This document shows, in pieces, positions 10,324-11,585 of a DNA stretch of 64,000 nt. The notes under the pieces were generated by a model that saw only the letters and a program-made list of their open reading frames with translations, was not told the origin of the DNA and ran no database searches. Origin of the DNA: a virus (taxonomy: Duplodnaviria; Heunggongvirae; Uroviricota; Caudoviricetes); the IMG/VR virus record IMGVR_UViG_2721755662_000004. The stretch is one strand, 5' to 3'. Made by a program: the position numbers and the translations under genes. Every line of letters starts with the position of its first letter. Position 1 is the first letter of the stretch.

Positions 10324-10470
10324 CAACCGCAGCAGCCTGAAGCCGATTGGGTTAACCCGGAGATACCGGGACCGTCTGTGAAGATGTGCAGTCACACCAA
10401 TGTGCAGTCACACCAACCGCAGCAGCCTGAAGCCGATTGGGTTAACCCGGGAGATACCGGGACCGTCTGC
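10324..10470. repeat. Two direct copies of a 57-bp unit plus a 15-bp tandem repeat upstream of the replication gene
   Basis: CAACCGCAGCAGCCTGAAGCCGATTGGGTTAACCCGG... at 10324-10380 and 10414-10470, with a third, interrupted copy at 11163-11243 inside the O-like gene; GTGCAGTCACACCAA x2 at 10383-10416. Confidence 0.8.
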
Positions 10471-10502
10471 GGTATGGAGTAAATCTTGTATGCGAGGGGA
10501 CT

Positions 10503-11585
10503 ATGCGTAATTACGCAACAATTTCACCTCAGTTCTGGTTAGGCGATACAGGGCGAAAACTAAGGAAGTCTGGTCCGGAAAGTATGGTAGTGGCGTTGTA
10601 TATGATGACCTCGCCTCATTCCAATATGCTGGGCCTTTATTACCTGCCTGTTTTGTACATTGCTCACGAAACCGGACTTGATCCTGAAGGGGCTTCTAAG
10701 GGGCTTCAAATGGCTTGCGAGGCTGGTTTTTGCAGCTATGACCATGATTCTGAGGTTGTATGGGTGCATGAAATGGCAGCATGGCAGGTTGGTGAATCGC
10801 TGAAACCTGGCGATAACCGTTGTGCTGGGGTAAGAAATGAATATTCCGCGTTGCTGGAAAATCCTTTTTTATCATCCTTTTATGATAGATATAAGGATGA
10901 TTTCCACCTGGATGTCAGACGTGAATCATGTCGGAAAATTGAAGCCCCTTCAGAGCCCCTTTCAAGCCAAGAACAGGAACAGGAACAAGAACAGGAAAGG
11001 GATAAAACCCTTCTGGTCCATGGCGAAAAAATCGCCACGGACCCACAGGGGGATTTTTGTCCTGTTCTGACTGAACGTCCAGGACCAGCTGGCACGACAC
11101 CGGAAGCAGATTCCGGGCGTTGTGTGCAGCAGGTGCTGATCGTCGAACCGGAGCAACAACGCCAACCGCAGCAGCCTGAAGCCGATTCCGCGATGAGCGG
11201 GAAGCCGATTGGGTTAACCCGGGCGATGCCGGGACCGTCTGCGGGACGAGTTGATTATCCTGACGTGTTCGAACGGGTCTGGCGTGAATATCCGCATCGG
11301 GCAGGGTCAAACCCGAAGAAATCCGCGTTCAATGCCTGGAGGGCCAGATTACGCGAAGGGGTGTCACCGGATGTCGTGCTGGATGGCGTGAGGCGTTACG
11401 CAAGATACCTGGAGGCTACCGGGAAAGCGGGAACTGAATTTGTTCAGCAGGCATCGACGTTTTTTGGCCCGAACAGGAATTTCGAAAATCCGTGGTCGCT
11501 GCCGAAGGCTGGCGCAGTCAGCCTGCGTTGCGTGAATCACATTTCTGAACCGGACACCGAAATTCCGCCGGGTTTCAGGGGGTAA
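10503..11585 (+). CDS. Replication initiation protein (O-like)
   Basis: 360 aa in the lambda O position; QEQEQEQEQE linker; internal copy of the upstream repeat. Confidence 0.7.
   Translation: MRNYATISPQFWLGDTGRKLRKSGPESMVVALYMMTSPHSNMLGLYYLPVLYIAHETGLDPEGASKGLQMACEAGFCSYDHDSEVVWVHEMAAWQVGESLKPGDNRCAGVRNEYSALLENPFLSSFYDRYKDDFHLDVRRESCRKIEAPSEPLSSQEQEQEQEQERDKTLLVHGEKIATDPQGDFCPVLTERPGPAGTTPEADSGRCVQQVLIVEPEQQRQPQQPEADSAMSGKPIGLTRAMPGPSAGRVDYPDVFERVWREYPHRAGSNPKKSAFNAWRARLREGVSPDVVLDGVRRYARYLEATGKAGTEFVQQASTFFGPNRNFENPWSLPKAGAVSLRCVNHISEPDTEIPPGFRG

Follow-up and report, generated by a model that had tools for sequence, protein, structure and literature searches.

The question raised by this locus is whether a set of long direct repeats around the start of a phage replication initiator gene marks the origin of replication, or whether the repeats arose in some other way. 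They are found in a stretch of 64,000 nucleotides (IMG/VR record IMGVR_UViG_2721755662_000004, Caudoviricetes; the whole stretch that was analysed is called the window) which carries a lambdoid Escherichia coli prophage, and the gene encodes an initiator of the 'Eru4' type. A preliminary description of this DNA reported a 57-bp unit present twice upstream of the gene and once inside it, and offered two explanations: a replication origin or iteron set, or a partial duplication of the initiator gene. Based on the comparisons presented here, we consider it probable that the repeats are a recombination scar, made up of duplicates, variable in copy number, of DNA coding for the linker of the initiator, and that initiation takes place most likely at 11-mers within the initiator gene. 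The coordinates of all features are given in Table 1.

The repeat itself is well founded. Three copies are present, two upstream of the gene (A and B) and one within it (C), far above chance: the 64 kb contain the 22-mer GAAGCCGATTGGGTTAACCCGG exactly three times (10339, 10429 and 11201; 0.01 expected) and the 26-mer CCAACCGCAGCAGCCTGAAGCCGATT exactly as often (10323, 10413 and 11162; 0 expected), and repeat detection on the window recovers the same repeat families. Concerning the length of the unit, 57 bp does not describe it fully: the homology extends over about 57–70 bp upstream and 93 bp inside the gene, and weak homology of copy B to the gene continues to about 10485. The start-to-start spacings are 90 and 772 bp. 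Every unit contains the perfect 10-bp palindrome GGGTTAACCC, as read from the sequence.

The initiator matches phrog_1701 over its full length and phrog_3729 over its C-terminal half; no Pfam family is found at E <= 0.01, including Phage_rep_O (lambda O), and the last ~25 residues show a weak likeness to the tail of DnaT. The protein consists of an N-terminal domain (N-domain, amino acids (aa) ~10–140), a predicted disordered linker (aa ~145–250) and a C-terminal domain (C-domain). An AlphaFold2 model based on an alignment of 49 sequences is confident for aa ~10–140 (predicted local distance difference test, pLDDT, 94–98) and for part of the C-domain; the pLDDT is <50 for most of aa 178–249, including the part encoded by copy C. 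In the model of the N-domain the order of helices and strands appears compatible with a winged helix, and the top Foldseek matches in the PDB are MarR, MntR, CAP and ArsR-type domains, all of them weak (E >= 0.14). The N-domain is probably DNA-binding.

Copies A and B align base for base with the linker-coding segment of the gene, copy A with an additional 1-bp deletion (CCCGG-AGATA). By this alignment, the unit is coding DNA for the predicted disordered, poorly constrained linker of the initiator. The peptide encoded by copy C had been given as ...QQRQPQQPEAD..., and it does read ...EQQRQPQQPEAD... The replication gene of phage Tritos contains an unrelated N-terminal domain, with multiple GTCACG repeats visible in the gene, and its protein aligns with that of the window from residue 165 onward (64% identity). 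The DNA of Tritos contains the unit once, at the corresponding position of the gene, with no upstream copy; there it is part of four GAAGCCGAT repeats with a 24-bp period, which encode a reiterated (P)EADS. Judged from this pair of genes, it is the C-terminal half of the initiator, and not the N-terminal domain, that the unit accompanies. Compared with Tritos, copy C has one indel of -1 and one of +1, separated by about 48 nt, so that 16 codons are read in another frame (MSGKPIGLTRAMPGPSA vs IQREADRVVPENTGQPV) and the downstream frame is intact (11181–11236 of the window vs 2583–2636 of L002, the Tritos-type allele). Because of this compensated frameshift and the pLDDT below 50, the peptide at copy C would be barely constrained.

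The differences between the copies can also be followed in the sequence. Copy C had been described as interrupted by a 23-bp internal duplication. The extra 23 bp (11188–11210) are indeed there; however, they are not an insertion into copy C: only 10 bp (GAAGCCGATT) are repeated within the segment, and it is part of a degenerate GAAGCCGAT/'PEADS' repeat with a 24-bp period, which is also found in Tritos. The segment reads as one period of this native repeat, one base shorter. Since all three upstream copies of E. coli 23CRST047 contain it, the upstream copies of the window have lost the 23 bp by deletion between the two GAAGCCGATT, and copy C has not gained them. Copy B and the junctions between copies carry a GTGCAG...TCACACC piece, whose match in the linker is ~45 nt closer to the start of the gene. 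As we read the sequences, both this GTGCAG/TCACACC piece and the junction of GTGCAG with TCACACCAAC in the later copies fit a Tritos-type linker from which 27 nt have been deleted; on this reading the duplicated piece would originally have comprised about 120 bp of the gene. A 15-bp tandem repeat had been noted at 10383–10416: the tandem repeat is present, but its period is 16 bp (ATGTGCAGTCACACCA, 10384–10416). A variant of this 16-mer array with additional units also exists (P0122, 88 aa). A by-eye check of the 16-mer for host-factor sites (DnaA box, CRP-like) gave none better than 5/9 or with the correct spacing.

Two observations concern the linker in general. At its start, the (GAACAG)n hexamer repeat varies from 2 to 7 units across Eru4-type loci, which is the probable source of the 6-bp differences in length among relatives. 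Also, the E. coli contig AARLFR010000029.1 ends within the GAAGCCGATT linker repeats of a related initiator gene (L011 3100–3146), which may be an assembly break caused by a linker and C-domain common to co-resident prophages.

The linker and C-domain are found in 2813 of 5426 complete E. coli genomes, and the unit is present upstream in 82 of the 5426, nearly all of which are >=99% identical. Comparing sequences of >=97% identity, one upstream copy is found in E. coli G1/2, two in the window and in phages PhiR5_2, phiSTEC1589-Stx1c, POCJ13 and 75/02 Stx, and three with a 90-bp period in TOE17; E. coli 23CRST047 also has three, each with the 23-bp segment and therefore with a 113-bp period. 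Among 37 stretches from IMG/VR, 24 contain two upstream copies plus the internal one and four contain one plus one, the remainder being truncated or ambiguous. In E. coli SW071619 the junction of an upstream copy with copy C falls within GAAGCCGATTGGGTTAACCCGGG; nothing of the N-domain is left, and the initiator gene is annotated as a pseudogene. CCTGATGCC is present in the three upstream copies of 23CRST047 as well as in its copy C, and CCTGAAGCC in all copies of the window; this uniformity within a genome indicates that the copies exchange sequence. The array therefore has the properties of a variable-number tandem repeat (VNTR): in relatives, the segment to which its copies are homologous is coding and present only once (Tritos alignments), the copy number is polymorphic among near-identical genomes, and a recombinant deletion product exists.

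VNTRs and mosaic-junction scars of lambdoid phages resemble this array in that the copy number differs between near-identical genomes, the copies are homogenised and deletions occur between them, and also in that the array is located at a module boundary, here between cII and the replication genes. It differs from them in two respects. What has been duplicated comes from inside the essential gene next to it, and recombination with the original copy therefore inactivates the initiator gene; in addition, the array keeps an open frame in most variants. A distant blastn search of E. coli genomes and phages and an exact-pattern scan of IMG/VR did not find the array beside another N-domain or in other genera; the 82 E. 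coli genomes and 37 viral contigs have a single architecture.

The first of the two explanations offered, a replication origin or iteron set, was not supported. In this reading, which we regard as very unlikely, the 57-bp units would be binding sites for the initiator or a host factor that form or assist the origin, as a split iteron set like those of P1 or SPP1. It is true that three highly similar copies surround the start of the initiator gene, that each contains the perfect palindrome, and that the copies co-vary within genomes. However, the unit goes with the linker and C-domain and does not co-occur with the putative DNA-binding domain of the initiator; Tritos has the unit together with an unrelated N-domain and with GTCACG repeats as a different candidate iteron. 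Homologues of the N-domain of the window were gathered from a protein database and a phage collection, and nine loci were analysed in full: an E. coli allele of 78% identity, Klebsiella, Acinetobacter phage YMC/09/02/B1251, Escherichia phage Fraca, Ralstonia phage NK-7, a Rhizobium prophage (47% amino-acid identity) and three metagenomic contigs. None of the nine contains gene-internal DNA copied upstream of the gene. The preliminary description had itself named absence from replication-competent relatives as evidence against its proposal, and the repeats are missing from three deposited phage genomes (B1251, Fraca and NK-7), whose replication is assumed. The units are 57–93 bp long, their spacings of 90 and 772 bp are not those of a compact, helically phased array, their G+C content is 0.55–0.67, and no AT-rich stretch adjoins them. 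They also carry indels of 1, 23 and 27 bp, and their number varies freely from one to three. Each of the comparisons made spoke against an origin at the long repeats.

A structured RNA was considered as well and rejected. A search of 9000–12500 against Rfam at E <= 1 gave only a chance miRNA match, and the predicted fold of 10300–10502, which arises from mutual pairing of the GGGTTAACCC palindromes of copies A and B, has a z-score of -1.74, with 11 of 200 shuffles as good.

A different set of repeats behaves as expected of iterons. The exact 10-mer of the GAAGGGGCTTC motif occurs three times in the window, all in the initiator gene (0.11 expected). The 11-mers form two clusters, both with an 11-bp period, which are detected as an inverted repeat with 23-nt arms (87% complementary), and between them the G+C content falls to 0.32 at 10850–10909 vs about 0.5 around, the only strong AT trough. 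All nine homologue loci contain GAAGGGGCTTC units with an 11-bp period in two clusters, at +178..195 and +427..472 from the ATG. In cluster 1 the third codon positions are invariant across the nine homologues (E62 all A, G63 all G, K66 all G and L68 all T), and at flanking conserved residues they are scrambled (G58 AGGCACGGC and P49 TAACCGCGA in the codon alignment). Cluster 2 is inverted (GAAGCCCCTTC) and reads EAPSKPL in the window, Acinetobacter, Ralstonia, Rhizobium and the metagenomes, and it is direct (GAAGGGGCTTC, two or three units) and reads EGASKGL in Klebsiella, the E. coli 78% allele and Fraca; its coordinates elsewhere are 2938–2964 (L008), 2940–2975 (L011) and 2938–2975 (L012). 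The two clusters carry the signature of a site that acts at the DNA level, because an 11-bp period cannot be a peptide repeat and because the peptide changes while the motif stays.

The 11-mers are thus short, phased repeats above chance, conserved with the N-domain beyond what coding requires, and they have an AT-rich neighbour. The GAAGGGGCTTC clusters are likely the origin of the Eru4 replication module, with the 11-mers as candidate iterons; that they act as iterons is suggested by analogy with lambda. Upstream of the initiator gene of the window, no 11-mer is found within two mismatches.

Several further observations concern the 11-mers. The ends of the motif, GAAG...CTTC, are self-complementary, and a small inversion or a swap of the central G and C bases interconverts the two forms of cluster 2. 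In Acinetobacter phage YMC/09/02/B1251 a third 11-mer cluster is found just 5' of the start codon (-38 and -27; L054 1155–1187); candidate iterons of this initiator family can therefore lie upstream of the gene, as 11-mers and not as long repeats. Cluster 1 coincides with the codons of the predicted helix 61–73 of the winged-helix-like N-domain. By its position this may be the recognition helix, in which case the site and the part of the protein that reads it may be the same DNA. Finally, the reiterated GAAGCCGATTC of the linker (EADS) and the inverted 11-mer GAAGCCCCTTC (EAPS) are identical at 9 of 11 positions (window 11099–11210; L002 2470–2605); it is a speculation that the peptide repeats of the linker descend from an old iteron array.

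The arrangement can be compared with that of lambda, whose ori consists of four 19-bp dyads in the linker-coding part of O. In both, the initiator gene directly follows cII and oop in the pR operon, the origin (in the window, the probable one) is inside the coding sequence of the initiator, with short repeats beside an AT-rich stretch, and a helicase-loader gene comes next (P in lambda, a DnaC-like one in the window). The candidate iterons of the window, on the other hand, are 11-mers in two inverted clusters ~255 bp apart in the part of the gene coding for the N-domain, the initiator has no sequence relationship to Phage_rep_O, and lambda has no counterpart to the 57-bp repeats. Split iteron sets are known from the P1 plasmid (incC and incA) and from SPP1 (oriL inside gene 38 and a distant oriR); in these, the initiator binds many short repeats, which go with its DNA-binding specificity. 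The similarity of the window to these systems, with repeats both upstream of and inside the initiator gene, is only superficial: iteron-like behaviour is seen for the 11-mers alone, the long repeats going with the linker and C-domain.

Some points weigh against a scar with the origin at the 11-mers. Neither the 82 E. coli genomes nor the IMG/VR loci that extend into the region include a member with zero upstream copies; each has one or more. This constant presence also counts in favour of the long repeats as binding sites, but it says little either way, because loss of the last copy needs illegitimate recombination and because the lineage is very young; a lineage of this age deprives the conservation of the array of weight. 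The co-variation of the copies within a genome could equally come from selection for matched sites. The 9/11 match of GAAGCCGATTC to the inverted 11-mer makes weak binding of the initiator possible by sequence, although the central GGGG/CCCC, the best-conserved part of the 11-mer, is broken in the linker motif. Also, the assignment of the origin to the 11-mers is a comparative one, and the papers searched contain no binding, origin-mapping or deletion experiment for the Eru4 module.

The second explanation offered, a partial duplication of the initiator gene which created a spurious ORF at 10264..10482, was supported by the base-for-base alignment, the presence of one to three copies and the variable length and frame of the ORF. 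This open reading frame of 72 codons (ORF72) takes its ATG and first 16 codons from a putative lambda-like relic at 10257–10312, which precedes copy A. Its first 50 nt align with the cII–O intergenic region and the first O codons of lambda, the ATG of lambda O aligning in frame with codon 9 (CTG) of ORF72. A search of 5.8 billion proteins gave ten clusters of homologues, all from E. coli, with lengths of 42, 46, 51, 58, 62, 72, 76, 88 and 102 aa. Downstream of a common MEQYTGIILPHLEEFRQQ...QQPEAD, they use at least three frames (P0124, P0128, P0129 and P0130). No longer protein with MEQYTGIILPHLEEF was found in the same set, and the possibility that ORF72 is a fragment of such a protein was rejected. 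ORF72 reads copy B (EADWVNPGDTGTVCG) in the frame of Tritos (EADRVVPENTGQPVG), unlike the reading of copy C in the gene.

It is very unlikely that ORF72 is a real small gene whose product mimics the linker of the initiator and, for example, modulates the contact of the initiator with the DnaC-like loader or the host helicase. Variants with one, two and three copies all keep the frame open, the 90-bp period corresponding to 30 codons; ORF72 forms a PHROG family (phrog_2751), is an annotated coding sequence (CDS) in RefSeq and phage records, and is located in the pR operon, 20 nt 5' of the start codon of the initiator. Set against this are the range of lengths (42–102 aa) and the at least three frames of the 3' half, neither of which fits a conserved gene. 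In 23CRST047 an early TAG closes the frame, and RefSeq has no CDS at this place. ORF72 is confined to one young E. coli/Shigella lineage, has no Pfam or NCBIfam match, and its 5' end aligns with the oop-promoter/O-start region of lambda and not with any protein family. ORF72 is probably a by-product of the array and not a conserved gene.

The scar could have formed as follows, the order of the ancestral events being our inference. In an ancestor of the Eru4 phages, about 120 bp of linker-coding DNA would have been placed between cII/oop and the initiator gene as it is now. The likeliest route would be an illegitimate join of two lambdoid replication genes with a common linker, followed by loss of the older N-domain; of the older gene only the first ~16 codons, in overlap with the oop promoter region, would thereby have remained. 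The upstream copy would then have become a tandem array, with a period of 90 bp, or of 113 bp where the 23-bp segment was kept. This array, presumably without a function of its own, expands, contracts and gains indels, and homologous recombination lets it swap sequence with the internal copy; where an upstream copy recombines with the internal one, the N-domain is removed and the gene killed. Initiation would most likely take place ~300–700 bp downstream of the array, where the initiator would bind the two inverted 11-mer clusters and the AT-rich stretch that they flank would be unwound.

The same structure could in principle have been kept for a purpose. The direct repeats might make the 'N-domain plus origin' a swappable cassette: recombination between linker copies would excise a circle of ~840 bp (N-domain, iterons and one linker copy), and a single crossover would insert it into the homologous linker of the initiator gene of another prophage, which would thereby gain a new origin specificity. 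Direct repeats do flank the segment 10473–11151, a natural example of the deletion step exists (SW071619), targets are abundant, given the homologous linker in 2813/5426 E. coli genomes, and a Campbell-type insertion into a linker would be expected to produce the present structure. Illegitimate recombination followed by tandem duplication explains it equally well, however; the 82 genomes and 37 viral contigs contain neither an array beside a different N-domain nor this N-domain in another linker, and no selective benefit has been demonstrated. We regard such a cassette as very unlikely. A more likely proposition is that the GAAGGGGCTTC clusters represent an undescribed and very widely conserved type of phage origin, in which the iteron is embedded in the codons of the predicted recognition helix.

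Concerning the surroundings of the locus, the region 10200–11600 is 100% identical to several E. coli chromosomes and 98.3–99.9% identical to phages PhiR5_2, phiSTEC1589-Stx1c, POCJ13 and 75/02 Stx. The lowest of these values is that of Shigella phage 75/02 Stx (NC_029120), whose 98.3% identity includes the upstream repeats. Similarity to lambda runs on beyond the stop codon of cII, and the oop promoter of lambda sits in the cII–O intergenic region. The strong terminator-like hairpin on the minus strand at 10198–10225 occupies the same place as the oop terminator in the alignment with lambda and, by its position, would be the terminator of an oop-type antisense RNA. The relic at 10257–10312 may, from its position and its alignment with lambda, have the role of the oop promoter, and it may be the kept 5' end of an older O-type gene, fused to a linker copy. 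A consensus scan of 10250–10500 found no promoter, either within the array or at the position of oop.

The 'Eru4' replication region of Stx phages has 75/02 Stx as its type phage (Fagerlund et al. 2022, PMC8951638) and is the same replication module as that of the window. The type is set by two proteins, labelled just 'unknown function' and 'putative helicase' (PMC8951638). The words iteron and repeat are not used in that paper, and 'origin' is used only for geographic origin and in titles of references; the linker duplication and the 11-mer clusters are hence undescribed in it. The papers searched on Eru4, POCJ13 and 75/02 Stx mention no origin, iterons or repeats, and a literature search for the 11-mer itself gave unrelated primer sequences only. 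The behaviour of Stx phages has been linked to the type of their replication module (PMC8044961, PMC8951638). Genomes of O104:H4 also contain matches to the region (98.9% identity); these presumably belong to a different prophage, because the Stx2 phage of O104:H4 is described as Eru1 type.

Table 1. Features of the early-right operon region and the replication initiator gene in the window (assignments from sequence comparison and structure prediction)
Feature	Position	Strand	Remarks
cI-type repressor	8794–9501	-	early-right operon region
cro	9558–9836		early-right operon
cII	9953–10249		Pfam Phage_CII; early-right operon
Intrinsic-terminator-like hairpin and T-run	10198..10225	-	11-pair stem with 6 G-C pairs; overlaps 3' end of cII
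Putative relic of lambda-like cII–O intergenic region and first ~9 codons of O-type gene	10257..10312	+	
ORF72 (phrog_2751), 72 aa	10264..10482	+	relic 5' end and two linker copies
Upstream copy A of linker-coding unit	10313..10378	+	without 23-bp segment and one more base
16-bp tandem repeat ATGTGCAGTCACACCA x2.1	10384..10416	+	junction between copies A and B; second unit is 5' end of copy B
Upstream copy B of linker-coding unit	10403..10472	+	without 23-bp segment
Replication initiator gene, 360 aa, 'Eru4' type	10503..11585	+	phrog_1701, phrog_3729
Candidate iteron cluster 1, GAAGGGGCTTC / TAAGGGGCTTC, 11-bp period	10686..10707	+	within codons 62–69 (EGASKGLQ)
AT-rich stretch between clusters, candidate DNA-unwinding region	10838..10909	.	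measured trough 10850–10909
Candidate iteron cluster 2, GAAGCCCCTTC / AGAGCCCCTTT on + strand	10941..10962	-	inverted vs cluster 1
(GAACAG)n hexamer repeat	10971..10997	+	encodes (EQ)n at linker start
Copy C, native linker-coding segment	11152..11244	+	aa 217–248, predicted disordered; includes 23-bp segment 11188–11210
DnaC/IstB-like ATPase gene	11592–12332		directly after initiator gene

For the annotation of these phages, the long repeats of the Eru4 module should not be recorded as an origin; the 72-aa 'hypothetical protein' annotated over them probably does not correspond to a gene. The repeats can serve as a copy-number marker that distinguishes otherwise identical prophages, and they may break short-read assemblies. 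For the phage itself, they are a built-in route to inactivation of the initiator through deletion of the N-domain. The duplication is ordinary, recent and prone to recombination; the more important product of the comparison is the likely origin of a widespread initiator family. The 11-mer clusters provide a specific origin candidate for the Eru4-type phages and their relatives in Klebsiella, Acinetobacter, Ralstonia and Rhizobium, for which none was described in the papers searched.

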